Source: Actinomycetota bacterium
GTDB taxonomy: Bacteria > Actinomycetota > Acidimicrobiia > Spongiisociales > UBA4744
DNA: 64,000 bases
Assembly (NCBI GenBank): GCA_013152275.1
Contig: JAADGS010000063.1
Location: 1-64,000, forward strand
Direction of reading: 5' to 3'
Positions within the stretch are counted from its first letter, which is position 1. Each line of letters begins with the position of its first letter. Shown here piece after piece: positions 36,720 through 63,074 of this stretch. The position numbers and the translations under genes were made by a program. A model generated the notes under the pieces. The model did not search any database. It saw nothing but the letters and a program-made list of their open reading frames with translations, and had not been told where the DNA came from.

Positions 36720-36871
36720 ATTTCGAGTCTACTTCAGCCGACGCGGCGGTCATCAAACCGCTATGTTAGTTTCCAGTGGCCCTGGTTATGAGGCTACGAG
36801 CCCGTAGCTCAGGGCCCGGCATCTCAGGTTCGACGACCGGCGATTCGTACGCCGAGAGGGAGGGGAGAACC

Positions 36872-37999
36872 ATGCCGGCCATGGAGACGCGCGAAAGAGC
36901 ACTGGGTGACCGTCTGGCGCAGTTTGGCGTAAACCGCCGAACATTTCTCAAGTACTGCGCAACCTTGACTGCCGTGCTTGCGCTCCCTGCACGCTTCACC
37001 GAACGTGTCGCACGAGCACTCGAGTCGGTGGAGAAACCATCGATCATCTGGCTCGAATTCCAAGACTGTGCAGGGGATACCGAGTCGTTTCTCCGTTCGC
37101 GCAATCCGGGAGTCGGCGATCTCATCCTCGACCTGCTCTCTGTCGACTATCACGAGACGATCATGGCGGCTGCCGGGTTTCAGGCGGAGGCGGCCAAGGA
37201 GGCCACGATCGCCAAAGGCGGCTACATCGTCGTCGTCGAAGGGTCGGTGCCGATGGGCGACGGCGGCGTCTACTGCACGATCGGTGGGAAGACCGCCATC
37301 CAGATTCTCGAGGAGGCGGCGGTCGGCGCCGCAGCGATCATCAACGTGGGTACATGCTCCGCCTACGGTGGCCTCCCCAAGGCTGCGCCCAACCCCACGC
37401 GCGCCGTCGGCGTGGCCTCGGTGGTGAGCGGAGTCCCGATCATCAACCTGCCCGGCTGTCCGGCCAATGCGGACAACATCACTGCCACACTCGTCCACTA
37501 CCTCACGTTCGGCTCGCTCCCGGCAACCGACTCGAAGGGCAGACCCCTCTTCGCGTACGGGACCCGGATACACGACGCCTGCGAACGCCGGGCACACTTC
37601 GACGCGGGCCAGTTCGTCCTCGAATGGGGCGACGCCGGGCACAAGAGGGGCTGGTGTCTCTACAAAATGGGCTGCAAAGGCCCCTCCACGTTCCACAACT
37701 GCCCCATCATCCGCTGGAACGAGGCGACGAGCTGGCCGGTCGGTTCAGGGCATGGGTGCGTCGGATGCTCCGAGCCCGACTTCTGGGACACCATGACCGA
37801 CTTCTACGTCCGGCTTCCCAAGGTCACCGGTTTCGGAGCGGAAGCCACCGCAGACAAGATCGGGCTGGGAATCGCCGCAGCCACCGCCGTCGGGTTCGGC
37901 GCCCACGGCATCGCCAAGGCGATTCAGAGACGGGCGGGTCTCGGCTCGGAAGGTCCCGCTCCCGGCTCCATGGAAGATGACACGGACGGGAGCGAATGA
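36872..37999 (+). CDS. Group 1 [NiFe]-hydrogenase small subunit
   Basis: Tat NRRTFLK, DCAGDTES, GTC, PGCP, HDAC, WCLYKMGCKGP, GHGCVGCSE, C-terminal TM anchor. Confidence 0.95.
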   Translation: MPAMETRERALGDRLAQFGVNRRTFLKYCATLTAVLALPARFTERVARALESVEKPSIIWLEFQDCAGDTESFLRSRNPGVGDLILDLLSVDYHETIMAAAGFQAEAAKEATIAKGGYIVVVEGSVPMGDGGVYCTIGGKTAIQILEEAAVGAAAIINVGTCSAYGGLPKAAPNPTRAVGVASVVSGVPIINLPGCPANADNITATLVHYLTFGSLPATDSKGRPLFAYGTRIHDACERRAHFDAGQFVLEWGDAGHKRGWCLYKMGCKGPSTFHNCPIIRWNEATSWPVGSGHGCVGCSEPDFWDTMTDFYVRLPKVTGFGAEATADKIGLGIAAATAVGFGAHGIAKAIQRRAGLGSEGPAPGSMEDDTDGSE

Positions 38000-39717
38000 T
38001 GGCAACAATCGTGGTCGATCCAATCACTCGCATCGAGGGACACCTCCGCATCGAAGCAGAGGTCGCCGATGGTGCAATCACGCAGGCCTGGTCCTCCGCG
38101 ACCATGTGGCGCGGCATCGAGACGATTCTCGAAGGCCGCGATCCTCGGGACGCCTGGTACTTCACGCAGCGCATCTGTGGCGTGTGCACGACCGTTCATG
38201 CGCTGGCATCGGTTCGTACGGTCGAGAACGCCTTGGACATCGTCCCTCCGCCCAACGCCCAGAGGATCAGGAACCTGATCGCCCTCAGCCAGTTCGTCCA
38301 GGACCATGTCGTGCACTTCTACCACTTGCACGCTCTCGACTGGGTGGACATCGTGTCTGCGCTGGATGCGGACCCACAGGCGACGGCCGAGCTGGCCGGC
38401 TCCATCTCCGACTATCCGCGCTCGAGCGTGGGCGTGTTTCGACAGGTGAAGAACAGGCTCGCCGCATTCGTCGAGGGAGGACAACTCGGTCCTTTCGCGG
38501 GAGGATACTGGGGCCACCCCGCCTACAAGCTTCCTCCCGAAGCGAACCTGATGGCAGTCAGCCACTATCTCGATGCGCTCGAGTTCCAGCGGGATTACAT
38601 CCGCATCCATGCCCTGCTTGGAGGCAAGAACCCCCACCCGCAGACGTACCTCGTGGGTGGAATGGCAACGCCCATCGATCCCGACTCGCAGGCGGCGATC
38701 AACGCAGGCTTGCTCGCAGAACTGCGCAAGCTGCTGAAACGGGGACTTGCCTTCGTCCAGCAGGCATACATCCCCGACCTGCTCGCGGTTGCGTCGTTCT
38801 ACAAGGACTGGGCTTCCATCGGCCGGGGGCTCGGGAACTACATGTCCTTCGGCGAATTCCCGACCGGGACCAACAATCCCGCGAAGGAACCGGACACGAT
38901 GTACCTGCCGCGAGGCGTGATTCTCGGCGGGGACCTCTCCCAGGTCCACCCGCTGGATCCGACCAGGATCGCCGAGTACGTAACGCACTCCTGGTACTCG
39001 TACTCTTCCGGTGACGCCACGCCTCTCGCGCCGTTCAACGGAGAGACGGTGCCCAACTTCACCGGTCCGCAGCCGCCCTACGAGTTCCTCGACACCGACT
39101 CGAAGTACTCCTGGCTGAAGGCTCCCCGGTACGACGACACCGCCATGGAGGTCGGTCCTTTGGCGCGCATGTTGGTTGCGTTCGCCTCCGGCCACACACG
39201 GGTCCAGGAGATCGTCGGATACGTCTTGGACACACTCGGTGTAGGGCCCGAAGTCCTCTTCAGCACGCTCGGACGGACGGCGGCGCGCGGCGTGGAGACA
39301 CTGCTTCTTGCGGAGCGCTCCCTGGAAGAGCTCGATCAGCTGATCGCCAACATCTCGACCGGAGATTACCGCACACATAACGGTGAGCGCTGGGACCCGA
39401 AGACATGGCCGGACGCGGCCCAGGGCTTCGGCATGCATGAAGCCCCCCGAGGCTCGCTGTCGCATTGGATCACGATCAAGGACAAGCGTATCGAGCACTA
39501 CCAGATCGTTGTTCCCTCCACGTGGAACGGAAGTCCTCGGGACGCGAAGGGAAACCCCGGTGCCTACGAGGCCGCACTCGTGGGTACTCCCGTGGCAATC
39601 GAGACCCAGCCACTGGAGATTCTGCGGACGATCCACTCCTTCGATCCTTGCATGGCATGCGCAGCACACCTGATCGACACGGACGGCAACCCCTTGGTGG
39701 AGGTGCGGGTGTCATGA
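37996..39717 (+). CDS. Group 1 [NiFe]-hydrogenase large subunit
   Basis: DPITRIEGH, L1 QRICGVCTTVH, L2 SFDPCMACAAH plus cleavable tail. Confidence 0.97.
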   Translation: MMATIVVDPITRIEGHLRIEAEVADGAITQAWSSATMWRGIETILEGRDPRDAWYFTQRICGVCTTVHALASVRTVENALDIVPPPNAQRIRNLIALSQFVQDHVVHFYHLHALDWVDIVSALDADPQATAELAGSISDYPRSSVGVFRQVKNRLAAFVEGGQLGPFAGGYWGHPAYKLPPEANLMAVSHYLDALEFQRDYIRIHALLGGKNPHPQTYLVGGMATPIDPDSQAAINAGLLAELRKLLKRGLAFVQQAYIPDLLAVASFYKDWASIGRGLGNYMSFGEFPTGTNNPAKEPDTMYLPRGVILGGDLSQVHPLDPTRIAEYVTHSWYSYSSGDATPLAPFNGETVPNFTGPQPPYEFLDTDSKYSWLKAPRYDDTAMEVGPLARMLVAFASGHTRVQEIVGYVLDTLGVGPEVLFSTLGRTAARGVETLLLAERSLEELDQLIANISTGDYRTHNGERWDPKTWPDAAQGFGMHEAPRGSLSHWITIKDKRIEHYQIVVPSTWNGSPRDAKGNPGAYEAALVGTPVAIETQPLEILRTIHSFDPCMACAAHLIDTDGNPLVEVRVS

Positions 39718-40427
39718 AGACGAAGGAAGCCCGTGTACGCGAAGTGCTCCAAGACCCGACGGTCGAGCGCACTCCGGGAATCGTGACCATCCGGGTGTGG
39801 GAACTGCCGGTACGCGTGCTGCACTGGACGGTTGTCGCCGCGGTACTGGTGCTGGCCGGCACCGGCTACTACATCGGCAACCCGTACATCCTCGTCGGCA
39901 GCGAACCAGGGTTCGTGATGGGTCTGATACGCTCCATCCACCTTGCCTCGGCGTGGGTGTTCAGTGTGGCCATCATCTGTCGCATCATCTGGTCGTTCAT
40001 CGGCAACCGGTGGTCACGCTGGGATCAACTCGTGCCTGTTCACCGCGAGCGGCGCGTCTGGCTGTGGAAGACTCTCGGGTACTACCTGTTCCTCAGGAAA
40101 GAGCCGCCCCCGGCAGCAGGGCACAACCCTTTGGCGGGAGTCACCTACCTGGTCGTCTTCGTCATGTTCGTCGTGCAGATCATCACCGGCCTTGCCCTGG
40201 CCGCATTGGCCAATCCTCAGGGGGTGCTGTGGTCGACCACCGGTTGGGTCTTCAGTCTGTTTGCGATCCAGACGGTCCGCCTCGTCCACCATCTGATCAT
40301 GTGGCTGACGATCGGCTTCGTCATCCACCACGTCTACTCGGCGGTGCTGGTCGATATCGAAGAGAAGTCGGGCTTGGTTTCATCGATCTTCACCGGCTAC
40401 AAACGACTGCCGATCGATCGCCTGTGA
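39714..40427 (+). CDS. Hydrogenase b-type cytochrome subunit
   Basis: VWELPVRVLHW, HNPLA, RLVHH, IHHVY; four TM helices. Confidence 0.92.
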   Translation: MKTKEARVREVLQDPTVERTPGIVTIRVWELPVRVLHWTVVAAVLVLAGTGYYIGNPYILVGSEPGFVMGLIRSIHLASAWVFSVAIICRIIWSFIGNRWSRWDQLVPVHRERRVWLWKTLGYYLFLRKEPPPAAGHNPLAGVTYLVVFVMFVVQIITGLALAALANPQGVLWSTTGWVFSLFAIQTVRLVHHLIMWLTIGFVIHHVYSAVLVDIEEKSGLVSSIFTGYKRLPIDRL

Positions 40428-40900
40428 CCGATCGGGCACCGATCCTGGTTCTTGGACTTGGGAATGAACTCTTCACCGACGAAGGTCTCGGCATACATGC
40501 GGCCCGCCGTATCGAGGCCATGCAGCTGCATGGTGTGGACGTGCTCGATGGCGGCACCCTGGGCATCGCCCTCCTCCCCGAGTTGGAAGGGCGCGACGCC
40601 GTGCTGATCCTGGATGCGGTGATCATGGCGGAAGGATCACCGGGCACAGTCGTCAAACTCCAGGAGAACGAACTGGACCGGCCGGTCCAGATGCTGTTCT
40701 CCGCGCATCAGTTCGGGATCGGCGAGACGATCGCCGCTGCACGCCTCGTGGGCCAGGCGCCCGCCCGCCTGACGGCCGTGGGCATGGTCCCCTTCTCCCT
40801 CGAAACCGGATACGGACTGAGCGCCGAAGCAGATGAGGCGCTCGCCGGCATGATCGAAGAGGCGTTGGGGGTCTTGACGGAATGGGGAGTCGATGCATGA
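40424..40900 (+). CDS. Hydrogenase maturation endopeptidase (HyaD-like)
   Basis: VLGLGN...DEGLG, DGGT, LDAV, SAHQ. Confidence 0.92.
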   Translation: MTDRAPILVLGLGNELFTDEGLGIHAARRIEAMQLHGVDVLDGGTLGIALLPELEGRDAVLILDAVIMAEGSPGTVVKLQENELDRPVQMLFSAHQFGIGETIAAARLVGQAPARLTAVGMVPFSLETGYGLSAEADEALAGMIEEALGVLTEWGVDA

Positions 40901-41216
40901 GCAAGGTCTGATCGCCGGCGTCGCCGCCGAAGTCGTCGAACGTGCCGGCGGCGGACGCGTGGGGCGTGTGGTCATTACCGTCGGTCCGGAGATAGACCCT
41001 CTGATCGTGACGACGGCATGGCAGTCGACGGTCATCGGAACGACGGCCGAGACGGCCGACCTCGTCGTCGAGAAGGCCCTCGATACGATGCAGTGCTTCA
41101 CGTGTGGCATCGAATACGAAGGAGCGAAGCTCGATCCGTGTCCCAAGTGCGGCCTCGACGGCCTCGTGATCCGAGCTGCTCCCGAAATCGCCCTGAAGTC
41201 CTGGAGCCCCGCATGA
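40893..41216 (+). CDS. hypA: Nickel metallochaperone HypA
   Basis: MHE N-terminus, CFTC and CPKC. Confidence 0.88.
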   Translation: MHEQGLIAGVAAEVVERAGGGRVGRVVITVGPEIDPLIVTTAWQSTVIGTTAETADLVVEKALDTMQCFTCGIEYEGAKLDPCPKCGLDGLVIRAAPEIALKSWSPA

Positions 41217-41316
41217 GGACAAAGCCGTACGACTCCCTTGGCTCACGGCGCATCAGGTGTGACGAAGACACCCAGAAACGCGATCCTTCGGACAACGGCA
41301 GGATGGAGTGGCCCAC

Positions 41317-41577
41317 ATGTGCCTAGGCGTCCCCGGCAAGGTGCTCGAAATCACCCCCAACGATACGGGGATGACCATGGGGAAAGTCAGCTTCGCAGGG
41401 ATCATCAAGGACGTTTGCCTCGCCTACATCCCCGAGGTGAAGATCGACGACTATGTGATCGTCCACGTCGGATTCGCCATCAGCAGAATCGACGAGACCG
41501 AGGCTCAGGAAGTGTTCCGGTTCCTCGACCAGATGGGTGACCTGGGCGAACTCGAGATTCCCGAGATCGGACTGTGA
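41317..41577 (+). CDS. hypC: HypC chaperone
   Basis: [16 protein letters not shown]. Confidence 0.95.
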
Positions 41578-42659
41578 AGTACGTCGACGAGTACCGTAGC
41601 GAAGCCTCCGCGCGGCAACTCTTTGCCGCCATCCGTGATGCGACCACCCGACCGTGGACGATCATGGAGATCTGTGGAGGGCAAACCCACACGTTGATCA
41701 AGTTCGGAATCGACAACATGCTTCCCGACGAGATAACCCTCGTCCACGGCCCCGGCTGTCCCGTGTGCGTCACACCTTTGGAGATGATCGACAAGGCGAT
41801 CGCCATCGCCAGACGTCCCGAAGTGATCTTCACATCCTTCGGCGACATGCTGCGCGTGCCCGGTTCCGACACGGATCTGCTGGCCGTGAAGGCGGAAGGC
41901 GGCGATGTGCGAATGGTGTACTCACCACTGGACGCCGTGAGGCTTGCCCAGCGGTATCCGGACCGACACGTCGTGTTCTTCGCAGTCGGATTCGAGACGA
42001 CCGCCCCGGCCAACGCCATGGCGGTACGGCATGCGCGAGCGCTCGAACTCACGAACTTCTCGATCCTGTCCTCCCATGTCCTCGTGCCGCCGGCGATGGA
42101 AGCGATCCTCGGCTCCCCCGACAACCTGGTGCAGGGGTTCCTGGCTGCCGGACACGTCTGCGCGGTGATGGGCTATTGGGAATACGAACCGATCGCAGAA
42201 CGGTACAAAGTCCCGATCGTCGTGACCGGGTTCGAACCGCTCGACCTCCTCCAGGGCATCTACATGGCGGTACGCATGCTCGAAGAAGGGCGTGTGGGCG
42301 TCGAAAACCAGTACGCGAGGGCTGTCGTCAAGGAAGGCAACGTCCCCGCCCAGGCGATGTTGCGAGAAGTATTCCGGCCCTGTGACCGACCGTGGAGGGG
42401 CATCGGGATCATCCCTCTGAGCGGGTTCGGTCTGAACCCCGAGTACGCGGCGTTCGATGCCACACTCCGATTCGACGTGGAGACGGTGACGGCCTCCGAG
42501 TCGGAGATCTGCATTGCCGGCGAGATCATGCGTGGCCTTCGCAAACCAAACGACTGCCCGGTGTTCGGGACCGACTGCACACCGGAACACCCTGTGGGTG
42601 CGCCCATGGTCTCGTCTGAAGGTGCCTGCGCGGCCTACTACCAATACGGGAGGGTCTGA
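41574..42659 (+). CDS. hypD: HypD
   Basis: [34 protein letters not shown]. Confidence 0.97.
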
Positions 42660-42661
42660 CC

Positions 42662-43714
42662 ATGGATGTCTCCGGGCTCGGAGTGTGCCCGATTCCCATC
42701 ACCGACTACCCGCATGTGCTCCTTGCCCACGGCGGGGGCGGCTCACTGTCGCAGATGCTGATCGAGCGGATGTTCGTGCCGACGTTCGGGAACCCGGTCC
42801 TGAACCAGCTTCATGATGGCGCCGTGCTCGACATGGAAATGAACCGGATCGCCGTCTCGACGGATTCTTTCGTGATCAGCCCGCTCTTCTTTCCTGGAGG
42901 CGACATCGGTTCGCTCGCCGTCCACGGCACCGTGAACGACGTCGCCATGTGCGGCGCAACCCCACGATTCCTCACCGTCGCGTTCATCCTCGAAGAAGGC
43001 CTTCCCATGGATGATCTGTGGCGCATCGTCTCGTCGATGAGGACCGCGGCAGACGGTGCCGGAGTCACGATCGTGACCGGGGACACCAAGGTCGTCGACC
43101 GAGGCAAGGGCGACGGCATCTACATCAATACGACCGGGGTCGGCGTCGTACCAGAAGGGATCGAAGTCTCTCCGGTGCGTGCCGAGCCAGGGGATGTCGT
43201 ATTGATCTCGGGTCGTATCGCCGAGCACGGCATCGCCGTCATGTCGGTCCGGGAAGGCCTCGAGTTCGAGACGCGCATCGGGAGTGATTCGGCGTCACTC
43301 AACGGCCTCGTGGAGGCGATCCTCGGAGCAGGCGGGTCCCGTGTTCACGTCCTGCGAGACCCGACTCGGGGCGGCCTGGCAAGCGCAACCAACGAGATCG
43401 CCGGGAGCGCCCGACGCGGGATTCGACTCGTCGAGTCGACCATCCCGATCCTGGATGAAGTTCGGGGTGCCTGCGAGATTCTCGGGTTCGACCCTCTCTA
43501 CGTTGCCAACGAGGGCAAACTGATCGCCATCGTCGCACCGGATGCCGCCGGGGCCGTACTTGCCGCAATGCAGACCCACCCCCTGGGAAGGGATGCTGCA
43601 GTGATCGGCGAGGTGACCGCGGAGCATCCTGGCCGCGTGTTCCTTCGAAGCAGTGTCGGCGGTAGCCGAGTCGTGGACATGCTGAGTGGGGAGCAGCTGC
43701 CGAGGATCTGTTGA
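42662..43714 (+). CDS. hypE: HypE
   Basis: AHGGGG, GTVND, GDTKVV, RDPTRGG, C-terminal PRIC. Confidence 0.97.
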   Translation: MDVSGLGVCPIPITDYPHVLLAHGGGGSLSQMLIERMFVPTFGNPVLNQLHDGAVLDMEMNRIAVSTDSFVISPLFFPGGDIGSLAVHGTVNDVAMCGATPRFLTVAFILEEGLPMDDLWRIVSSMRTAADGAGVTIVTGDTKVVDRGKGDGIYINTTGVGVVPEGIEVSPVRAEPGDVVLISGRIAEHGIAVMSVREGLEFETRIGSDSASLNGLVEAILGAGGSRVHVLRDPTRGGLASATNEIAGSARRGIRLVESTIPILDEVRGACEILGFDPLYVANEGKLIAIVAPDAAGAVLAAMQTHPLGRDAAVIGEVTAEHPGRVFLRSSVGGSRVVDMLSGEQLPRIC

Positions 43715-45892: not shown

Positions 45893-46717
45893 TCATACCG
45901 CCGGCGCAGGCACAGGACGGCGGCCCGTCATCTTCAAGAAAGCGACGAGCACCGGGATCAGGTATGCCCAGTAGCCGCCGAGCGTCAGTAAAGACGGGTT
46001 GTACGAGATGCCGAAAAGTGCCTTGGCGAAGCTGCCGAACAGGCTCGTGGAAGGGTCGAGAAACCCGAGCGTCCACACGTGCTCGACGACCACCGGCAGA
46101 AAGCCGGCCTCCTGAAACTCGTGGATCCCCTTGCCGATCAGACCGGCGGCCACGACGACGATCAGAGTCCCCGTAATCCGGAAGAAGAGGCGCAGATCGA
46201 TCCGGCGGCCTCCTCGATACACGAGATATCCGATGCCGACCGCAACGATCAGACCGAACAACCCGCCGACGAATTGAACACCCTGAGCCTCGACTCCCAC
46301 CGCAACCGAAATCATGAACAGTGCCGATTCAAGCCCCTCTCGCAGCACCGCCACGAACGCAACCGCCGCGAGGCCAAGCATGCCGCCGGAGGCGAGAACG
46401 GACCCGGCTTCGTTCTCGAGGTGCGCCTTGAGTAGATGCGCCCTGCTCCCCATCCAGAAGATCATCCATGTCAGCAGTCCTACTGCGGCGAGTGCCACAG
46501 CCCCTTCCGCAATCTGTTCCGCACGACCTTCGAGCGATCCGATCGTCCGGAAGATCACTGCACCCGCGACCAGTGACACACCCGCTGCGGCAGCGGTCCC
46601 GGACCAAACCCAACGCACCCCCCGGTATTGCTTCGACCGCACGAGATAGGCAAGCAGGATCGCGACGATCAGGGCTGCTTCGACTCCTTCACGGAGCATC
46701 ACCAGGAATCCGGCCAT
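45893..46717 (-). CDS. FTR1/EfeU-family iron permease
   Basis: Two REGxE motifs (LREGVE, LREGLE), HEFQEAG, seven TM helices. Confidence 0.92.
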   Translation of the reverse strand: MAGFLVMLREGVEAALIVAILLAYLVRSKQYRGVRWVWSGTAAAAGVSLVAGAVIFRTIGSLEGRAEQIAEGAVALAAVGLLTWMIFWMGSRAHLLKAHLENEAGSVLASGGMLGLAAVAFVAVLREGLESALFMISVAVGVEAQGVQFVGGLFGLIVAVGIGYLVYRGGRRIDLRLFFRITGTLIVVVAAGLIGKGIHEFQEAGFLPVVVEHVWTLGFLDPSTSLFGSFAKALFGISYNPSLLTLGGYWAYLIPVLVAFLKMTGRRPVPAPAV

Positions 46718-46852: not shown

Positions 46853-47630
46853 TCCCCCTGAGGGGAAGACAAACCCTGGCGCTCTCAGCCGTTCTGGACG
46901 GATCGGATGTAGTCCAGGACCGCCCGGATCTCCTCATCGGAGAACGCCGGCATGGCCGTGCCCGCCACACCGTTCTCGATGGCTCCAAGTAGTTCTGCGT
47001 CGGGATCACCGGCCGCAGGCGAGTTCGCATCGAGAGCCTTACCGACACCACCCTCCAGATTCGCGCCATGACAGGCGGCACACTTCGCCGTGTAGATCGC
47101 CTTGCCATCGACGCCGCTCGAAGGCGCCGTCGTGGCGGTCGACCCGCCGCTCGAACACGCTGCTACCAGCAGCGCCAACACTGCAATGACAATGACCATG
47201 CGTCTCATGGATTCCTCCCCTTGGCAGGTCGAAACCTATCACGCAACACGGGTTTGTGGGGCCAACACCGCCTCAGGTCCTTGCTTCCTCCAACGCAGAT
47301 CGGGAGAAACCGAGTCGGATCGAAGACATCCCCATCACTTCGGCTCGTTCCTCGCCGAGCCCACATCCCCCTGAGGGGAAGACAAACCCTGGCGCTCTCA
47401 GCCGTTCTGGACGGATCGGATGTAGTCCAGGACCGCCCGGATCTCCTCATCGGAGAGCCGCTCCACGCCGGCATGGCCGTGCCCGCCACACCGTTCTCGA
47501 TCGTCCCGAGTAGTTCCTCGTCGGGATCACCGGCCGCAGGCGAGTTCGCATCGAGAGCCTTACCGACACCACCCTCCAGATTCGCGCCATGACAGGCAGC
47601 ACACTTCGCCGTGTAGATCGCCTTGCCATC
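46853..47630. repeat. Direct duplication of a cytochrome c domain plus 3' flank
   Basis: 46853-47109 and 47366-47630 near-identical; second copy has 8 extra nt at 47457-47464. Confidence 0.93.
46885..47208 (-). CDS. Monoheme cytochrome c lipoprotein
   Basis: Lipobox LVAAC, CAACH, distal Met in AMPAF; GGAGG RBS. Confidence 0.9.
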   Translation of the reverse strand: MRRMVIVIAVLALLVAACSSGGSTATTAPSSGVDGKAIYTAKCAACHGANLEGGVGKALDANSPAAGDPDAELLGAIENGVAGTAMPAFSDEEIRAVLDYIRSVQNG

Positions 47631-48134
47631 CGGTCCGGCTGCTCCAACGGTGGTCGTGGTACCGCCTCCGGTGGCGGACGGTGCCGCCAGTGGCTCCCGC
47701 CAGTTCGGACGATCGGGTGCGCCCTTTTCCAGCGAGCGCAGGTAGGAGGACAAGGCATTGATCTGTTCGAGGGTGAACGGACCGTTGAAGTCCTGCAGGT
47801 AGGCACTCATCTGCGTCCCCGGAATACCGACCGAGACGAGCGAGCGAATCTGCTCGTCTGACACCGAGCCGAGAAACTGCTTCGAATTGAGTGCAGGACC
47901 GATCCCCCCGGTGGCGTTCTGGCCATGGCAGGCAGCGCAGTTCTGCACGAAGAGTTCATCACCGGTGGCAATCAGATTGGCGACATGCTGCGCTTTTGCC
48001 TCCGCGCGCCTGTTCGGTTCGACCAGCCTGTAGGCGACAAACGCCAGCACGAGGAGCACCAGCAGACCGACACCCCACAGCATCCACCTGTTCGTAGATT
48101 CATCCATCTTCGGATCTGGTGGTCGTTCAGGCAC
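47398..48134 (-). CDS. Membrane-anchored diheme cytochrome c, frameshifted near 3' end
   Basis: N-terminal TM, two CAACH motifs; homologous stop at 47398-47400 is out of frame because of the indel at ~47460, so the ORF as read runs to 47205. Confidence 0.85.
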
Positions 48135-48630
48135 TTTCTGTCCCCCCGCAGTTTGGGCCACGCAGCGGTTCATCGATCGTCTCGGGGCCGCGTGGAGGCC
48201 CGAGAGTCACCAAACCCGTGTCCACTTGAACGATGCCGTCGACGATCTCCACCGCGTAGCGATCCATGCCTCGGGGAGCAGGGCCCTCCCGCCACTCTCC
48301 AAGTCGGTTGAACTTCGAGCCATGGCATGGGCACTCGAACTCGCCAGACGAATCGCACCACGGCACCCGGCATCCCAGGTGTGGACATTTCCACGAGAGT
48401 GCCACGGTCTCGCCCTCGATTTCGGCCACATACCCACGAATGGCCGGCAACTCGGCGACATCCACGGTCGGGACGTCGGCGACGGGGCCTGCTTTCACCA
48501 TTCCCCCGAAACCGGAGGTCTCGCCCGGCTTGAACATGTCCCAGCTTGTCCAGGCACCGGCAACACCAACGAGACCGAAACCCCATTTCCAGCCTCTGGC
48601 CAGCAGCTCTCTTCGGTTGATCTTGCTCAT
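48127..48630 (-). CDS. Rieske [2Fe-2S] protein of a Rieske/cytochrome b complex
   Basis: Tat NRRELL, CPHLGC and CPCHGSKF, GPAPR. Confidence 0.93.
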   Translation of the reverse strand: MSKINRRELLARGWKWGFGLVGVAGAWTSWDMFKPGETSGFGGMVKAGPVADVPTVDVAELPAIRGYVAEIEGETVALSWKCPHLGCRVPWCDSSGEFECPCHGSKFNRLGEWREGPAPRGMDRYAVEIVDGIVQVDTGLVTLGPPRGPETIDEPLRGPNCGGTESA

Positions 48631-49148
48631 AGCTCTCCGTACCAATCCTTCCACGGCCAGACCCAACCCCAGTCGGGACCTCTGAACATGAACCCGATCA
48701 GCGTGAGCAGGATCCAGACGACCATGAAGATCGTGAACGTGGCGACGGCCACCTTACGGAATCTTGGCTGAAGGTGAGGGTTCCGGTCGATGTACGGCAA
48801 CGCGGCCAAGCCGAGCACGATCGCGCCCGGCAAGAGGACTCCCGCCACCAGCGGATGGAAATGCGACAGGAGTTCCTGCAAGGCTGCAAAGTACCAAGGG
48901 GCCTTCTCGGGGTTCGGGGTCAAGTTCGGATTGGCGATCTCCCGCAGCGGAGCATTGAACACGACCGCAAGAAGCACGACGACTGCAACGACGACCAGAG
49001 CCGTCACGGCATGACGCACGAGCAGATGTGGCCACACCATCACCGGATCCTCCTCCGACAACACCTTCCGCTTCCCACCGGGCGGGATGCCGGGTACCAC
49101 GCCAAGGACACGATGCCCCTTGATCACCTTCGGTTCCTGGTCGTCCAT
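48627..49148 (-). CDS. Cytochrome b C-terminal half (subunit IV / PetD-like)
   Basis: VWPHLL, ANP..TPNPEKAPWYF, LPYIDR. Confidence 0.88.
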   Translation of the reverse strand: MDDQEPKVIKGHRVLGVVPGIPPGGKRKVLSEEDPVMVWPHLLVRHAVTALVVVAVVVLLAVVFNAPLREIANPNLTPNPEKAPWYFAALQELLSHFHPLVAGVLLPGAIVLGLAALPYIDRNPHLQPRFRKVAVATFTIFMVVWILLTLIGFMFRGPDWGWVWPWKDWYGEL

Positions 49149-49150
49149 GG

Positions 49151-49909
49151 TCACCTCCCCACCGCTGCGACGTCCTCTTCGGCACGCTCCTCGTCGGTCG
49201 ACTGCGTCAACATCGAGTCCTTCCTCCAACGCCAGAGATGGAACGTCACCACGATCACCAGCACCGTCGGCAGCACGGCGACATGCAGCACGTAGAAGCG
49301 GAGCAGGGTGGAAGAGCCGACTTCGGAACCGCCCAACAGGATCTTCTCGATGAGGCCTCCCAGCACCGGCACGAAACCTGCCATCGAGCTTCCGACCGTC
49401 ACCGCCCAATACGCCAACTGATCCCAGGGAAGCAGATAGCCCGTGAACGAGAGCAGCAATGTGATGACGAGCAGGACGACTCCGATGACCCAGTTGAACT
49501 CCTTCGGCTTCTTGTACGCACCGCGATAGAACACCCGGGCCATGTGGATTGCCACGATGAGCACCATCAGGTGGGCAGACCAGCGGTGAACGTTACGCAC
49601 GTATTGCCCGAACGGAATACTCGTCTGGATGCGCAGAATATCGAGGTACGCCGACGCCGGAGACGGCACATAGAAGAACATCAGATAGATGCCCGACAGC
49701 ACGAGTGAGCCGAAGAGGACCAGAGCTGCAACACCCAGATACCACGAGTAGCGGAAGCCGATCTCCTTCCTCCTCATCTTCACGGGGTAGATGTGCAACA
49801 AGAAGCTCGCCCAGTGGCCGGCGGCACGGTCGCGCTCCGTCACGCGGTCGGGAGTCCTCCAGATGGAGCGCCCGATCGTGGACTCTCTCACTTGTTTCAT
49901 CAGATTCAT
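49151..49909 (-). CDS. Cytochrome b N-terminal half (cytochrome b6 / PetB-like)
   Basis: HRWSAH...HMARV, NWVIG, TGYLLPWDQLAYWA, RFYVLH...FH heme ligands. Confidence 0.93.
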   Translation of the reverse strand: MNLMKQVRESTIGRSIWRTPDRVTERDRAAGHWASFLLHIYPVKMRRKEIGFRYSWYLGVAALVLFGSLVLSGIYLMFFYVPSPASAYLDILRIQTSIPFGQYVRNVHRWSAHLMVLIVAIHMARVFYRGAYKKPKEFNWVIGVVLLVITLLLSFTGYLLPWDQLAYWAVTVGSSMAGFVPVLGGLIEKILLGGSEVGSSTLLRFYVLHVAVLPTVLVIVVTFHLWRWRKDSMLTQSTDEERAEEDVAAVGR

Positions 49910-51708
49910 ACTTGCACTCCCACTTTTGGCACCCCCACTCCCGTCCACAATCCCATGGACAGGGCGTCCGTCGGGCACCGCTCGATACAAAGCGCGCACC
50001 GAATGCATGCACGCTCGTCGAACATCAGCGCCGTCGACCCTGCCGGACCGGCCCCAACCTCCTCTGCCGGAACGAGCGAGATCACATCGATCGGACACAC
50101 GTCGGCGCACAGCGCGCACAGCACGCACTCACTGGCGTCGAGGAGGATGTTGGCAAAACAGCGTAGGCATCGTTTGGCCTCACACCGAGCCATCTCCTCG
50201 GTGAACCCTGTCTCGACCTCCGTCAGGCCGATGCGACGATCGGTCGGAGTCGTGGGGACATCGATGCGCCCGATACGGTCGTAGATGTCATCGAGACGGT
50301 GAAACTGCTCCAGCCGGACCATCTGGCCTCTCTGTTGCTCCTGGATCTCGCCACCGAACGCCTTGTGGATCTGCGCCGCGGCGATCCGACCGTCGGCGAT
50401 ACCGAGGATCAGTGTTCGGGGCCCTTTTGCGGCGTCGCCACCGGCCCACACCATGGGTATCGACGTCTCGAGGGTGTCGGGATCGATCTGGATCGTCCTG
50501 CGGGGGGAGACCTGCGGACCGTCGGCGCCGAGCGCCTCGACATCGACCGACTGACCGATGGCCAGGATGATCGTGTCCGCCTCGTGCAGTTGAACATCAT
50601 CGTGGTCGAACTTTGGCGCGAATCTCCCGTTCTCGTCGAACACCGACAGCACACCAATCGTTTCGAGTCCGGTAACGCGGCCACGAGTGTCCGTCAGGAT
50701 GCGAGCGGGCCCGCGACGGTGCACGAACGCGATGTTCTCATTCACGGCCTCTTCGAGCTCGAACTCCGAGGCAGGCAACTCCTCGACCGATTCGAGCGAG
50801 ATGACCTTCACGTGTGTCGCTCCGGCTCGAGCCGCGGTGCGGGCAACGTCGAGAGCTTCGGTGATAGCGGCCGTCTCTTCCACCTGTTCGAACCGGCTTT
50901 CCAGAGCCTTGGTCTCGTAGGCGTCGCGCCGCAACGCAGTCCGTGCGGCATCCATCGCCACGTCGCCGCCGCCGATGACGATCACCTTCTCGCCGATGTC
51001 CACCTCAAAACCTTGATTGGCGTTGAGGAGGAACTCGACGGCCTTCAAGACGCCATCTGCGTCGCCTCCGGGGATGTCGAGACCGCGTCCCAAGAACGCG
51101 CCGAACGACAAGAAGACGGCGTCGTGACGCTCTCGTAGTTGATCCAGCGTGACATCGGCACCGAGTCTCGTATTCAGCTGCACCTCGACACCCATGTCGA
51201 CGATTGCACGGATCTCCGCCGCGAGCAGGCTTCGATCGAGGCGATATTCGGGAATGCCGAGAACCATCATCCCGCCGAGAACTCCCGTCGCTTCATACAC
51301 CGTCACCTTGTAGCCGAGACGTCGCAGGTCGTGCGCCGCCGACAGCCCTGTCGGCCCACCACCTACGATCCCCACGCTGTAGGGGAGATCGACGAGTGGT
51401 GCTCCAGCCACTTCCTTGTACATGTCGCTGCCTGCTTCGACCCCGTACCTCTCGGTGACGAACCTCTTCAACGCCCGAATGGCGATCGGCCGGTCGATCT
51501 CCCCCCGGCGACACTCGTCTTCGCATGGTGCAGCGCACACACGACCGCAGACCGAGGCAAATGGGTTCGGCAACCGGGCGGTCAAATAGGCGAACTCGTC
51601 CTCACCGTCCGCGATGGCGGCCACGTATGCGCCTGCGTTCGTGTGAACGGGGCATGCGGCCAGACACGGGATGTTCTCGTCGTAGAACTGGAGGGGCCCG
51701 ATCGTCAT
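49906..51708 (-). CDS. Fe-S flavoprotein, GltD/DsrL-like NAD(P)H oxidoreductase with C-terminal 2x[4Fe-4S] ferredoxin
   Basis: CLAACP and CGRVCAAPCEDEC, GGGPTG, GIPEYRL, IGGGDVAMD, EAKRCLRC, CVLCALCADVCP, CIRCALCIERCP. Confidence 0.9.
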   Translation of the reverse strand: MTIGPLQFYDENIPCLAACPVHTNAGAYVAAIADGEDEFAYLTARLPNPFASVCGRVCAAPCEDECRRGEIDRPIAIRALKRFVTERYGVEAGSDMYKEVAGAPLVDLPYSVGIVGGGPTGLSAAHDLRRLGYKVTVYEATGVLGGMMVLGIPEYRLDRSLLAAEIRAIVDMGVEVQLNTRLGADVTLDQLRERHDAVFLSFGAFLGRGLDIPGGDADGVLKAVEFLLNANQGFEVDIGEKVIVIGGGDVAMDAARTALRRDAYETKALESRFEQVEETAAITEALDVARTAARAGATHVKVISLESVEELPASEFELEEAVNENIAFVHRRGPARILTDTRGRVTGLETIGVLSVFDENGRFAPKFDHDDVQLHEADTIILAIGQSVDVEALGADGPQVSPRRTIQIDPDTLETSIPMVWAGGDAAKGPRTLILGIADGRIAAAQIHKAFGGEIQEQQRGQMVRLEQFHRLDDIYDRIGRIDVPTTPTDRRIGLTEVETGFTEEMARCEAKRCLRCFANILLDASECVLCALCADVCPIDVISLVPAEEVGAGPAGSTALMFDERACIRCALCIERCPTDALSMGLWTGVGVPKVGVQV

Positions 51709-51944
51709 ATCTTCTGCGCCTTCTGCAGGTGGCGAAGCGCCACCATACCGACCGCCAGCGCCGTAAACCAGACCCCCGAGACCACAATGTCCTGGACGGC
51801 TCTCGGGGCGCCGGAGATCGGGGCCACCTTGAACAGCACCGAAGGCAACCACACGGTCATGAGGAAGAAGGAGAAGAACAGGACGAAGGCGCGCGCATAC
51901 GCGCCTTTCCAGGTGAACGATTCGTGACCCGGTTTCACGACCAT
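51705..51944 (-). CDS. Small two-TM membrane protein homologous to the NarI C-terminal extension
   Basis: 79 aa, GGAAGG RBS, ATGA overlap with flavoprotein start, TVWLPS...SGAPR.VQD motif shared with NarI tail. Confidence 0.82.
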   Translation of the reverse strand: MVVKPGHESFTWKGAYARAFVLFFSFFLMTVWLPSVLFKVAPISGAPRAVQDIVVSGVWFTALAVGMVALRHLQKAQKI

Positions 51945-52113: not shown

Positions 52114-52308
52114 TATCCCCGTGTCTGACCGTACCTCTGGCTGTCGTCTTCGAGCGCTCGGGAACTCGCAGATTCGAGCCGGCCATCCGAGCCTACCGCG
52201 CAACGGATCATCAGCGAACTCGAATACTATGACACGAGGATCCTTATTGATAAGATCCACCAATCCCTAGGCGATAACGGGGTCGAGGGAATAATGATCG
52301 GAGGGATC

Positions 52309-53784
52309 ATGAGACGGACCCGCCTTTTCGCCGTGCTGTTTGTGTTCACACTTGTCGCTGCCGCCTGTTCGAGTACAGCCGAGACGACAACGACCACGAC
52401 ACCGGTACAGACGACGACAACGACGAAAGCCGCCACCACGACAACCGCCATGAAGGTCGCCCAAGGAGATGTCGTCAAAGGCGGCCTCTTGTACGACAAG
52501 TGGTGGAAAGCCCTCGGTATCGACGAGCCATCCGGCGACATGCCACTGTGGGCAACCCAGAGTACGAATACCCGATCCGGAGCCGCCACCTGGCGCTGCA
52601 AAGAGTGCCACGGCTGGGACTACAAGGGCGCCGAGGGTGTCTATGCCTCCGGTTCCCACGCGACCGGATTCCCCGGAATCTGGGATGCGCGGTCCAAGTC
52701 GTATGACGATTTGAAGGCCATCCTCACGACGGGGGATCACGATTTCTCCGTGATGGGCGACGCAGCCCTGGAGGACTTGATCACGTTCGTCCAACAGGGC
52801 CTCGTGGACACGTCGAAGTACATCAACGCCGACAAGACCCTCATCGGGGCCGATCCCGACCGAGGCGACGGACTCTTCGACAGTGCCTGTGCGGCCTGTC
52901 ACGGTGCGGACGGCACGACGATCAATTTCGGTTCTGACGAAGAGCCCGAGTTCGTGGGTACCGTCGCATCGGACAACCCGTGGGAAGCGCTTCACAAGAT
53001 TCGCGTCGGCCAGCCGGGCGCGGCGATGCCGGCGGCGCTGAACGGCGACTGGACCATCCAGGACATGATCGACGTCATTGGCCATGCCCAGACGTTCCCC
53101 ACCGAGAAGACCGGGGAGGATCTGAGCGCAATAGCGTTGGGCGGCAGACTCTACGACAAGTGGTTCAAAGTCGCGGGCGTGGACGCGCCCGACGGCGACA
53201 TGCCGCTGTGGGCAAACCAGTCCACGAACACCCGTAGCGGCGCCGATACCTGGCGCTGCAAAGAGTGCCACGGCTGGGACTACAAGGGTGCCGACGGTGT
53301 CTATGCCTCCGGTTCCCACGCGACCGGATTCCCCGGAGTCTGGGATGCACGAGACTGGACCAGCGAACAGATCGTTGCCCAGATCTCCGGCAAGAACGAC
53401 CCGAATCACGACTTCTCGCCGTATCTGTCCCATGACCAGCTGCACGCACTCGCCGTGTTCATCACCAACGGCATGTTCGACAAGTCGACGCTGTTCGATC
53501 CGGCCACGAAGACACCCACGGCAGGCGATGCCGCCGAAGGGAAGAAGCTCTACGACGCAGGATGCGCGGCGTGCCACGGTGCGGACGGCACGCAGATCAA
53601 CTTCGGTGACGACGCCGAACCCGAGTATGTGGGGACGGTCATGGTCGACAACCCGTGGGAAGGTTCGCACAAGATCATGTTCGGCCAGCCCGGAACCGGT
53701 ATGCCGACCGGGATCGAGAGCGGCTTGAGCATCGAGCAGCTTCTCGACCTGATCAAGTACATGCAGACGTTCCCGACCAGCTAG
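52309..53784 (+). CDS. Tetraheme cytochrome c lipoprotein with tandem diheme repeats
   Basis: Lipobox AAAC, Thr-rich linker, (CKECH + CAACH) x2 at 220-aa spacing. Confidence 0.9.
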   Translation: MRRTRLFAVLFVFTLVAAACSSTAETTTTTTPVQTTTTTKAATTTTAMKVAQGDVVKGGLLYDKWWKALGIDEPSGDMPLWATQSTNTRSGAATWRCKECHGWDYKGAEGVYASGSHATGFPGIWDARSKSYDDLKAILTTGDHDFSVMGDAALEDLITFVQQGLVDTSKYINADKTLIGADPDRGDGLFDSACAACHGADGTTINFGSDEEPEFVGTVASDNPWEALHKIRVGQPGAAMPAALNGDWTIQDMIDVIGHAQTFPTEKTGEDLSAIALGGRLYDKWFKVAGVDAPDGDMPLWANQSTNTRSGADTWRCKECHGWDYKGADGVYASGSHATGFPGVWDARDWTSEQIVAQISGKNDPNHDFSPYLSHDQLHALAVFITNGMFDKSTLFDPATKTPTAGDAAEGKKLYDAGCAACHGADGTQINFGDDAEPEYVGTVMVDNPWEGSHKIMFGQPGTGMPTGIESGLSIEQLLDLIKYMQTFPTS

Positions 53785-55731: not shown

Positions 55732-56631
55732 CTAGATCCTGGCGGTCCGTTGTGCCCAGCGCAGACCGAAGATCACGAAGGCCAGCAGGACCAGCCAGGT
55801 ACCGCTGGCCGCGAGATCCTGCACCAGACGCGGGGCGCCCGACAGCGCCGAGCTCTCCAGCAGCGCCGAGGGCAGCCAGACGGTACCGACTGCGAAGACA
55901 ACGACGATGAGCACACCCCGCAGCCAGGCCGAGCCCCAGCTGATCCCCGACAGCCTCGGGACTTCTCTCCGCACCCAGACGACGATCTGCCACGGCCGTA
56001 TCAGGTATCCGAGCGGCACCGTGATGATGTGTACCAGCCGGGAGAAGGGGAAGAGCGCGAGGAAGACGAAGAACAACACGACGTGCGTCTGCGTAATGAA
56101 CGGCATCGAAGCCAACAGATCCGCACGGGGCTGAAGCGACAGCAGTGAGCGCACGTAGGGGACCATCACGCCGAGCCCCCACACCGACCCGAACCGGTAC
56201 AACACCGCGGTCAGCACTCCAGTGAGCACCTGGAAGCCGACAAGTGTCAGCACGATGCCATCCATCAATGAGGTCACCGCGCGGACTCTGTGCTCCGTCA
56301 GACGTCGATACCCGAGCACGAGCAGCCCACCGAGTGCCCAAACGCCGAGAGCGAACCCCGTGGCCTCCAGCAGGTAGAGGCGGACCGGAGCCCTATTCCA
56401 GACGAGGAATGTCTCCGGTACCACCAAGGCAACGAGGTGGGCGGTGAGGATGACCACGACCCCCCAGTGGAACGACACCGAGCCCCAGAAGAGCTTCTTG
56501 CGCTCCAGCAGTTGCGAGGACAATGACGACATGGTGAACGGACGGCGAACGGCACGATAGAACGTGCCGATCACCGCCACGGCGGTCGCCACGTACGGGA
56601 AGATCACGAACAACAACAGGTTCCAGTTCAT
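55732..56631 (-). CDS. narI: Respiratory nitrate reductase gamma subunit with C-terminal extension
   Basis: PY, SSQLLE, FHWG...H, H...FPFSRLVH, YLIRP.Q; then ~75 extra residues. Confidence 0.94.
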   Translation of the reverse strand: MNWNLLLFVIFPYVATAVAVIGTFYRAVRRPFTMSSLSSQLLERKKLFWGSVSFHWGVVVILTAHLVALVVPETFLVWNRAPVRLYLLEATGFALGVWALGGLLVLGYRRLTEHRVRAVTSLMDGIVLTLVGFQVLTGVLTAVLYRFGSVWGLGVMVPYVRSLLSLQPRADLLASMPFITQTHVVLFFVFLALFPFSRLVHIITVPLGYLIRPWQIVVWVRREVPRLSGISWGSAWLRGVLIVVVFAVGTVWLPSALLESSALSGAPRLVQDLAASGTWLVLLAFVIFGLRWAQRTARI

Positions 56632-61600: not shown

Positions 61601-62271
61601 TCGGCCACGTCGGTCTGCTCACCCCACACTTCGGGAGAGGCCGGCGGCAGGTCGCAGTACCAGTCGTAGAAACTCATGACGACGCCGCCGAAGAGGGAGA
61701 GAAACCGGCTCCCCGAGGCGTAGCTGATCTGAGACATGGCAGGGATCGGAGAGAACCCGATGACACGGTCGGGGCCGTGCTTCTTCGCCGTGTGGACCGA
61801 TGACGCGGCAGCGATCTCGAGCGCCTCGTCCCAGCGGATGCGGCGGAACCCGCCCTTGCCCCGCGCCTGCTGGATCCGGCTGCGCTTCTCGGGATCCGCC
61901 ATGATCGATGCCCATGCGTCCACCGGGTCGTTGTGCAGCCGCCTGGCGGCGCGCCACAGGTCGATGAGTGCCCCGCGAGCATACGGATACTTGACGCGAA
62001 TCGGGCTGTACAGGTACCACGAGAAGGAGATCCCCCGTTGGCACCCTCTCGGCTCGTACGGTGGAAGGCCGTCTTCGAGACGCGGATAATCGGTGGCCTG
62101 CAACTCCCAGGTCACGATGCCGTCCTTGACGAACACCTCCCAGGAACAACTCCCCGTGCAGTTCACCCCGTGGGTGGTGCGCACCCGCTTGTCGTGCTGG
62201 AAGCGGTTTCGGTAGAACTCCTCCCACTTGCGCTCCGCCGGAGCGACTTTCTCTTGCGTCCAATCCTTCAT
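58657..62271 (-). CDS. narG: Respiratory nitrate reductase alpha subunit (cytoplasm-facing, no Tat signal)
   Basis: [10 protein letters not shown] (FS0), [36 protein letters not shown]; start MKDW at 62271. Confidence 0.97.
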
Positions 62272-63074
62272 CGCCCGCTCCTCAGTCGTTCCACATAACT
62301 CGTCCGTGATCTCCTGAATATCAACATCACCCCGAACAACACCACTGCACCGATCACACCCAGGACCAACAGCAGATCGACCCCGCCCGACGAAGGCTGT
62401 GTCGTCGCGAAGTATGCGGCGAGGTCGGCCCGCTCCGCGTCCGTGAAGGGGCTCGCCCCGAACACCGGTTGCATCGTCGGGGACGGCGGGTTGGCCAGGA
62501 CGGCGAAGACACCGTCGGTGCCTCCGAATCGAGCAGACAGGTCGGTGAGGTCCGGTCCCAGCGTGCTGCCACCGAGGTTGGTGTGGCTGCCTGCACTGTG
62601 ACATGCGATGCAGGCCGGTCCGCCTCCGTCCAGCCGCTGCACACCGACGAAGATCGCCTCGCCACGCTCGGCGGAGCCGGTCACGGCCGCCGCGGTCGGC
62701 ACGGTTACACCCGCGGTAGTAGTGGTCCCGGCCGGCGACCCTTGCAGATCACCCTGCACGTGACCGATCAGCGCGGCGATGTCTGCGTCGCTCAGTGAGG
62801 AGAACGGAGGCATGACGCCGTCGTATTGGACTCCGAGCACCTCGATCGGCCCCGAAAGCCCCCCGGTGATCACGGTGCGCACGAACTCGGCATCCTGAAC
62901 TGCCGGGTTGCCGGCGAGAGGGGGGAACGATCCTGCAACGCCTTCGCCGGTGGGACCGTGGCACGCCGCACAATTCGTCTGGTAGATGGTGGCGCCGTCG
63001 GGTTCGGCGGCCGAGGCCGCAGGCACGACGGCCATCGTCATGAACAGCGTCGCCGCGACGAGGTAGCGGATCAT
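62268..63074 (-). CDS. Diheme cytochrome c, NarC-like
   Basis: Signal peptide, CAACH and CIACH, C-terminal TM anchor, ATGA-coupled to narG. Confidence 0.85.

Follow-up and report, generated by a model that had tools for sequence, protein, structure and literature searches.

The closest described relatives of the operon reported here are the Rieske/cytochrome b complexes of anaerobic ammonium-oxidizing (anammox) bacteria, encoded in Kuenenia stuttgartiensis by Kustd1480-1485 and Kuste4569-4574, for which a bifurcation of quinol electrons to nicotinamide adenine dinucleotide (NAD(P)+) has been proposed since 2013 and was still argued from potentials and models in 2025 (PMC12954380; this and the other papers are cited from excerpts of their text). 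Hauser et al. (2025) measured the Kuenenia Rieske proteins at +303 and +335 mV (the latter for Kustd1480), placed a further b heme on the dimer axis by modelling, with His62 of Kustd1481 as ligand and with Arg266, Lys267 and Kustd1483 Arg550 at its propionates, stated that the subunits co-migrate, and identified the reduction of quinone at heme cN as both the main leak and the largest unsolved problem of bifurcation (PMC12954380). Subfamily G of Dibrova et al. combines a short cytochrome b, the motif APWY and, 'in many other cases', an adjoining NAD(P)-binding iron-sulfur (Fe-S) oxidoreductase, and a split cytochrome b has already been reported in Ilumatobacter coccineus (PMC5600118, PMC4122944). 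Here we describe a minus-strand operon at positions 46885..51944 of a 64,000-nucleotide stretch (the window) of contig JAADGS010000063.1, from a bacterium whose closest named relatives are Acidimicrobiia; judged by its genes, it encodes a Rieske/cytochrome b complex with a split cytochrome b and a built-in Fe-S flavoprotein gene. The kind is already known from Kustd1480-1485 and subfamily G; an actinobacterial form that has lost the heme cn site appears to be new. We found no paper on that form, although the supplements of Dibrova et al. 2017 and the tables of Kao and Hunte may list such operons, and the word 'Rieske' does not occur in the excerpts of a paper on UBA5794 genomes (PMC12008989). 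The loss of the heme cn site, absent from an earlier note on this DNA, is the most informative feature of the operon. Its genes, in order of transcription, are:

51705..51944, minus strand: accessory protein of 79 aa with two transmembrane helices (2-TM protein); no Pfam or NCBIfam family
49906..51708, minus strand: Fe-S flavoprotein, 600 aa; Pfam Fer4_20, Pyr_redox_2 and two Fer4
49151..49909, minus strand: short (b6-type) cytochrome b, 252 aa; Pfam Cytochrome_B
48627..49148, minus strand: subunit IV, 173 aa, three transmembrane helices, APWY motif of the quinol-oxidising (Qo) site; Pfam Cytochrom_B_C
48127..48630, minus strand: Rieske protein, 167 aa, with a twin-arginine-like N-terminus; Pfam Rieske
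47398..48134, minus strand: membrane-anchored diheme cytochrome c, two CxxCH; Pfam Cytochrom_C; end given at the corrected stop
46885..47208, minus strand: monoheme lipoprotein cytochrome c; copy of the diheme gene's second heme domain

All seven open reading frames (ORFs) of the earlier note, and the gene order that it gave, were recovered by an ORF and Pfam check. From the 2-TM gene through the diheme cytochrome c gene, stop and start codons overlap or lie at most 3 nt apart; the note had taken the overlap to that point, and it goes no further. Its statement that this is not the standard actinobacterial qcrCAB is borne out, as all Qcr models score below cut-off (QcrB 124 of 500) and the short cytochrome b with APWY differs from the long cytochrome b with PDWY of QcrCAB. 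The best NCBIfam match of the cytochrome b, Geobacter ExtP, is likewise below cut-off (257 bits against 290), and a fold search with an AlphaFold2 model of the cytochrome b returned only b6 and b. In databases the operon is annotated as a glutamate synthase or formate dehydrogenase subunit.

The likeness to the anammox complexes that the earlier note named holds residue by residue. A motif scan for anammox-type loci yielded 115 metagenome loci, from which L286 was taken as the Kustd1481/1483-type reference: its Rieske protein is identical to the stretch shown of Protein Data Bank (PDB) entry 9rk3, and His62, Arg266-Lys267 and Arg550 stand at the same numbers. The cytochrome b, subunit IV and flavoprotein are 46%, 42% and 37% identical to the Kustd-type locus, and His39, Arg229, Lys230 and flavoprotein Arg577 align to H62, R266, K267 and R550 of L286, each kept in 60 of 60 loci of the clade. 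Shared with Kustd1480-1485/Kuste4569-4574 (PMC12954380) are the split into cytochrome b and subunit IV, APWY, the Ser/Phe Rieske protein, whose best PDB match is Kustd1480 (9rk3), and a four-cluster oxidoreductase with flavin adenine dinucleotide (FAD) and a Lys at the proximal cluster, K81 corresponding to the buried Lys85. The differences are equally consistent: the anammox complexes keep heme cN (CxGG C80/G83, subunit IV E48), whereas the operon has Y57/V60 and H46; their nucleotide site reads YRR in 17 of 17 Kustd-type loci, and SLE here; their subunit IV has five transmembrane helices, against three (by hydropathy) and a separate 2-TM protein; and a hexa- or octaheme cytochrome c (6-8 CxxCH) takes the place of the mono- or diheme protein (2 CxxCH). 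The gene order also differs, and both proteins for which the earlier note had asked for a phylogeny branch apart from anammox, although the flavoprotein tree was drawn without the DsrL sequences it had named. In the cytochrome b tree (49 rows, L286 and L266 removed as duplicates) the clade and its sister form one branch (100/99, stem 0.96), the root being unsure with two long outgroup branches. Six small genes stand here against the large multiheme subunits of anammox.

The heme ligands of the cytochrome b are H108/H122/H209/H224, with the H209-x14-H224 spacing, and its best matches are b6 proteins. Its W56-Y57-L58-G59-V60 aligns without gaps to Y34-C35-L36-G37-G38 of b6, so that no CxGG is present; cytochrome b6f, by comparison, has a Cys35-bound heme cn and cytochrome f in place of Y57 and a class I cytochrome c. 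The residue at the Cys35 position is Tyr or Phe throughout the clade (60 of 60); all 15 sister loci have Arg there, and the 14 loci from other classes have Arg or Gly. R45-H46 of subunit IV aligns to the Lys-Asp pair of mammalian cytochrome b and to K47-E48 of the anammox locus, and this Arg-His pair is equally constant (60/60, 15/15 and 13/14 in the same groups). In addition, W228 of cytochrome b, present in 60 of 60, sits at b6 I206, a residue listed among those of the Qn site (PMC11570496), whereas in the sister groups that position is Val or Ile and the second Gly of CxGG is mostly replaced by Phe or Tyr; the alignment suggests that bulky residues at inner pocket positions arose in two ways. 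Short subfamily G sequences have been linked with CxGG in print (PMC5600118, PMC4122944), and the present lineage is short yet lacks it, while having these other marks of the group: a four-helix cytochrome b, a separate subunit IV, APWY (60 of 60) and an oxidoreductase gene within the operon. Ser105 of the Rieske protein is found in 80 of 86 sequences, with Thr in the other six, and Phe107 likewise agrees with Kustd1480. Cytochrome b His32 (near window position 49816) is present in 60 of 60 here and absent from the sister clade; together with subunit IV His46 (60 of 60), likewise on the inner face, it could form a further heme or metal site, possibly a second bis-His heme. The AlphaFold2 model of cytochrome b alone (pLDDT 64, pTM 0.45, residues 32-45 below 50) is unusable for pocket geometry. 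We note that the host has a second Rieske/cytochrome b operon (G000:C9:4960-8182, minus strand) with TLGS in place of CxGG and a Rieske protein without the Ser, in which subunit IV and a multiheme cytochrome form one ORF with 7 CxxCH and which lies beside 10- and 11-heme cytochromes.

The flavoprotein has two N-terminal clusters, an FAD and an NAD-type site, and a C-terminal 2[4Fe-4S] ferredoxin carrying Arg577. The Fe-S, FAD and NAD(P)H folds, the EAxRCxxC linker (EAKRCLRC at residue 510) and the C-terminal ferredoxin were all confirmed by Pfam and motif. In the proximal cluster Lys81 stands where the fourth ligand would be, and the distal N-terminal cluster is likely completed by Cys514/Cys517; K81, E306, C514, C517 and R577 are each found in 60 of 60 members of the clade. 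The best solved matches (E 1e-75 to 1e-86) are the GltD-like modules of StnC (8oh5) and NfnA (9bov, 9n5u), which share the Lys at the Lys81 position and an EAxRC motif after the Rossmann domains; unlike the present protein they have no membrane cytochrome, being large soluble subunits, and their nucleotide sites read YRR. SLES at residue 304 (S304-L305-E306) aligns to their YRRT/YRRS. Among DsrL-related enzymes YRR goes with NADP(H) and S/T-L-x with NAD(H), as in DsrL-1 (Loeffler et al. 2020, PMC7596348), and because of this site and those kinetics the SLE points to NAD(H) use, as the earlier note had hinted. In a quick tree of 58 rows the protein falls among the xLE sequences (branch SH-aLRT 99), and the anammox YRR sequences form a separate branch. 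The label 'DsrL-like' stands for the domain order; the nearest solved relatives are StnC and NfnA, and the nearest named complex is Kustd1483. That the protein is a true DsrL serving sulfur metabolism we regard as extremely improbable. It would account for the domain order and for the DsrL-1A-like insertion within the nucleotide-binding domain; against it, dsrA was not found in the 100%-complete genome (the earlier note had seen no dsr genes nearby), no DsrL model is among the 25 NCBIfam matches listed, the context is a membrane complex, and the residue at the proximal-ligand position is Lys, not the Glu that PMC7596348 reports for NfnB.

The linkage of flavoprotein and cytochrome b was followed in a set of 60 relatives and in a species collection from which the best 80 of 520 confirmed relatives were kept; the two sets partly share genomes, and the tallies include G034 (negative) and G699 (one match), both unpublished. 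Cytochrome b occurs at 69-94% identity in 29 of the 60 relatives, with the flavoprotein directly upstream in 28 of 29 loci; in the last, a contig end falls between the two, which are joined on another contig, giving 29 of 29. In the collection, mostly Acidimicrobiia, the two are neighbours in 80 of 80 loci (79 within 300 nt, one at 330 nt), followed in every locus long enough to judge by subunit IV (77/77), the Rieske protein (72/72) and a cytochrome c (68/68). The 2-TM gene is present in 74 of 74 loci, by a profile derived from this same collection, and in all 15 sister loci, none of which contributed to the profile (13 under E 0.01). The linkage is far beyond chance, and the conservation across genomes for which the earlier note had called is plain. 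Among Acidimicrobiia at least 90% complete, 55 of 301 carry the flavoprotein, 36 at 62% identity or more and 19 at 52-62%; a 56th match, at 38%, has no adjoining cytochrome b. Flavoprotein, cytochrome b and subunit IV follow in order in 15 of 15 sister-clade loci examined (of 19). In an Actinomycetota sample 21 of 401 genomes match, 15 of them outside Acidimicrobiia, and the same gene order is kept in 13 of 14 loci examined from other actinobacterial classes. More distant full-length relatives of the flavoprotein are named Nitrospirota and Nitrospinota. No species-named isolate appears among the 120 best matches of two protein searches, so no cultured host was seen.

Several individual loci deserve mention. 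The flavoprotein is split by frameshifts, probably assembly errors, in L041, L042, L083 and L140. Operons with 71-77% cytochrome b identity lie in records titled Gemmatimonadales, Gammaproteobacteria and Kiloniellaceae (L076, L096, L141), through transfer or mis-binning. L044, L045, L046 and L048, all of one family, have a second Rieske-cytochrome b-subunit IV set directly upstream of the flavoprotein operon. The host also has an orphan Rieske gene (G000:C64:186945-187448, minus strand), 76% identical to that of the operon and with no cytochrome b nearby.

A second APWY operon, with 53-58% cytochrome b identity, is near-universal in the order and was not found in the host genus; 20 loci of the same order as the host (L169-L188) were examined. 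Its gene set comprises a 4-TM protein, a 2[4Fe-4S] ferredoxin, a CLGG cytochrome b, a subunit IV with a long low-complexity N-terminus, a Rieske protein and a diheme cytochrome c. A 150-aa ferredoxin takes the place of the flavoprotein, with no FAD/NAD domain; CLGG and His39 are kept in 20 of 20, and all 19 subunit IV sequences retain the Glu. This ferredoxin matches the C-terminal domain of the flavoprotein (hhalign 99%), and the C-terminal half of the 4-TM protein matches the 2-TM protein (hhalign 74%, E 2.9e-5; five transmembrane controls below 1%). The comparison indicates that an Fe-S dock on the inner face is ancestral to both operons; since His39 is present in a paralog with ferredoxin alone, it was ruled out as a marker of flavoprotein binding, and by itself it is no sign of NAD chemistry. 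Among the sampled actinobacterial operons the FAD/NAD domain goes with heme cn loss, although these are kin and may represent a single event. The operon and its heme cn-keeping ferredoxin paralog form a natural control pair. The 2-TM protein was also considered as a split-off part of a 5-TM subunit IV and this was rejected, there being no match to the subunit IV of paralog or clade (the extra anammox helices lay outside the comparison). Within a few kb of the paralogous operon there is a divergent heme-copper-family gene.

From these features we propose, at a probability of roughly 45%, that the complex bifurcates the electrons of menaquinol between cytochrome c and NAD+, one to each, and that complex I re-oxidises the NADH formed. 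Menaquinone is presumably the quinone of this chain, as in Actinomycetota. Quinol would be oxidised at the APWY Qo site, and the first electron would travel through the Rieske protein and cytochrome c to a ba3-like oxidase in most hosts, or to NarC/Nar or multiheme cytochromes in this one; the second would run from bL to bH, to the His39-ligated heme at the dimer axis, and through four Fe-S clusters and FAD to NAD+. The remodelled inner pocket would reduce little or no quinone, and complex I would replace the quinone-reducing (Qi) site, moving more protons per electron delivered to a scarce acceptor; alternatively, the NADH could feed biosynthesis. The flavoprotein is likely carried on the cytoplasmic face of the complex. 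The direction from quinol to NAD+ is favoured because the lineage has lost the heme cN ligands, the main leak, and has complex I genes on the contig; NADH-to-quinone flow has been argued to be wasteful where complex I exists (PMC12954380). By the symmetry argument of Hauser et al., a Ser-type Rieske protein on a menaquinone chain should leave heme bL low enough for NAD+ (PMC12954380); this Ser is missing from the Rieske protein of the host's other complex. On assumed potentials and stoichiometries, the NADH loop to O2 moves 9 charges per two electrons against 5 and is feasible to about 199 mV. The lineage keeps the predicted electron exit path and has lost the site named as the main short-circuit in anammox. 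A fuller version, a complex III with no working Qi site, in which heme cn is deleted, the inner pocket closed, bH wired to NAD+ and the Q cycle closed by complex I, while the 2-TM subunit (fused to NarI) docks nitrate reductase, we hold to be doubtful; it would nearly double the charges per electron from menaquinol to O2 and let menaquinone-using microaerobes exploit the wide menaquinol-O2 span.

A number of points weigh against bifurcation. With nitrate the loop moves 8 charges and is feasible only below about 124 mV, and bifurcation alone nets -52 to +35 mV at 150 mV (both on assumed potentials), so the energetic case is good for oxidase-bearing hosts and marginal for this one. No heme-copper oxidase was found in the host genome (nor in any of three in the genus), and nirK and nosZ were not found in the host genome either. 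Oxygen-short heterotrophs usually need NADH oxidised rather than made. His39 and Arg229/Lys230, kept in the ferredoxin-only paralog, mark an Fe-S dock and not NAD chemistry or its direction. The loss of Qi is read from alignments; R229, R45, H41 and H46 are protonatable, and a His217-to-Arg change leaves the Rhodobacter Qi site active (PMC5001787). Several of these points suit the opposite flow, in which the flavoprotein would oxidise NADH and pass electrons by the central heme and bH to a heme-free, remodelled Qi site (H41/H46/R229), making the complex a non-pumping NADH dehydrogenase joined to a Q cycle that would turn NADH over quickly when oxygen is low or nitrate is the acceptor. Such input would be downhill and require no special potentials; the NAD-type site is found in 60 of 60, low-oxygen modules co-occur (a ba3-like oxidase near 33 of 80 loci; 20 of 22 narG genomes), the Qi positions still hold protonatable residues, and Thermus provides a precedent in Nrc, a Nar-linked NADH dehydrogenase (PMC7694296). 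We nevertheless consider it unlikely, if worth keeping in view: three Qi-defining features were lost together across the lineage, unexpected if Qi took more flux, the proton-pumping complex I on the contig would be bypassed, and a Ser-type Rieske protein would not be needed.

A reversal at Qo, in which NADH by way of bH/bL and reduced cytochrome c by way of the Rieske protein together reduce menaquinone, would suit a Qi-less enzyme equally well and would draw high-potential periplasmic electrons into the quinol pool feeding Nar or cytochrome bd. Kao and Hunte describe APWY as typical of complexes that run in reverse (PMC4122944), a further point against the forward direction, and the host has a quinol-fed Nar, cytochrome bd and many multiheme cytochromes with no cytochrome c oxidase found; most hosts, though, have an oxidase able to take cytochrome c electrons directly, membrane potential would be spent, and the 80 loci contain no conserved nearby high-potential donor enzyme, all of which makes this distinctly improbable. 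Less probable again is a flavoprotein that is co-transcribed but separate from the membrane complex, or that exchanges electrons with ferredoxin or another partner. Gene order alone is no proof of a subunit, and a multiheme gene stands between the pair in L348, but the genes overlap, the linkage is 80 of 80, Arg577 and its partner residues are kept from anammox, the paralog has a homologous ferredoxin at the same place, and the anammox subunits co-migrate (PMC12954380). A complex prediction (two cytochrome b, two subunit IV and flavoprotein residues 455-597) scored 0.27 and 0.26 against a mark of 0.32 with no controls folded, and was not used either way.

The earlier note had placed the complex in nitrate respiration, on account of the neighbouring nitrate reductase. 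A Pfam scan of the window finds narC-GHJI, moaA, mobA and a divergent tetraheme gene upstream of the operon and a [NiFe] hydrogenase cluster downstream. Two genes of the nitrate reductase region bear on the operon:

55732..56631, minus strand: NarI, lying outside the operon; its residues from about 225 to 299 are a second, fused copy of the 2-TM protein
62268..63074, minus strand: NarC-like diheme cytochrome c heading narGHJI, likened to Thermus NarC by layout, unaligned

The C-terminal extension of NarI is homologous to the 2-TM protein (39%, E 1.6e-12). Full-length matches to the fusion occur in G002 and G026 only, and 18 other listed NarI matches end before residue 230. G002 has the same fusion (G002:C24:19236-20132) as window 55732-55972 (minus strand), and G026 a 40%-identical NarI-like fusion (G026:C2:66888-67760) beside a heme-copper oxidase gene, with no narG found in that genome. 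A search of the ESM Atlas with the 2-TM protein gave no match above 0.86. In L076 and L078, narGHJI runs straight into the operon. Among the 60 relatives narG is present in 20, all of them among the 31 with the flavoprotein and none among the 29 without it; in the Acidimicrobiia sample it is found in 20 of 36 genomes with the flavoprotein at 62% or more, 0 of 19 at 52-62% and 2 of 246 with none, a difference that kinship inflates. The association with nitrate stands in that 20 of 22 narG-bearing Acidimicrobiia carry the operon, but it is too narrow: of 80 loci, 7 have nar genes within 8 kb and 33 have a ba3-like heme-copper oxidase (typed by motif) within that distance, neither is found in 22 of 61 loci with enough upstream DNA, and narG was not found in 35 of 55 flavoprotein-bearing genomes. 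In L070, L099, L105, L115 and L134 subunit I of the ba3-like oxidase lies about 3-8 kb upstream of cytochrome b on the opposite strand, together with a 720-790-aa fusion of a long cytochrome b, a ferredoxin, an MvhD-like domain and a cytochrome c, like the PDWF-FeS clade (PMC4122944); both are transcribed away from the operon, an arrangement seen in many relatives.

The host genome (3.07 Mb, 100% complete) has cytochrome bd and many multiheme cytochromes. In this oxidase-less host the NarC-like diheme gene is a candidate acceptor of the high-potential electron, its position ahead of narG resembling the Thermus NarC layout (PMC7694296). Autotrophy was considered as a reason for NADH production and set aside, as no acetyl-CoA synthase was found and the CoxL-like genes all score below cut-off; a weak RuBisCO-family match (G000:C39:30859-31365, plus strand) is probably a RuBisCO-like protein. 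A search for NrfA in the host genome gave nothing beyond weak multiheme matches.

At the cytochrome c end, the diheme ORF leaves its frame near 47456 through a 4-nt deletion in this assembly. Comparison of contigs shows 4 extra letters at that point in run X2 and the same letters in run X3, whose contig skips a 513-nt second copy; a collapsed repeat contig of run X1 has the in-frame form, and the gene is intact in the congener G002, where the monoheme copy is absent. Because contigs of three runs and the congener agree, the frameshift is probably an assembly error; the corrected stop near 47398 leaves a gap between the diheme and monoheme genes. The second heme domain of the former and the monoheme gene share a repeat of 261 nt, of which 166 nt are 96% and 95 nt 99% identical, and from this near-identity, with the skipping of the copy by one run's contig, we take the monoheme gene to be a recent, strain-variable duplicate and not a core subunit. 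In most relatives the anchored cytochrome has a single heme and is about 150 aa long. The three best-matching runs are labelled hydrothermal vent metagenome and belong to one study, and one of them may be the source of the assembly; no RNA dataset is among the runs listed as carrying the locus.

FNR, Crp and Rex consensus boxes upstream of the operon were matched in at most 4 of 68 loci and not in the window, and promoter and terminator scans at the locus were at chance level only. The nuo genes, named from their translations, lie farther along the contig: past the window end, G000:C10:63481-85813 holds a NarK-like transporter, the nuo operon, a Rex-like regulator and, at the contig end, a further subunit IV homolog, and this stretch and the operon region are one respiratory island. 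On the other side, the operon is followed by an FTR1 iron permease gene (window 45893-46717, minus strand), as it is in several loci of the same family, and window 36776-43714 (plus strand), 3 kb downstream, encodes an uptake-type [NiFe] hydrogenase with its maturation genes. The divergent tetraheme lipoprotein at window 52294-53784 (plus strand) has an internal repeat, and a 52%-identical relative sits within the operon in L348.

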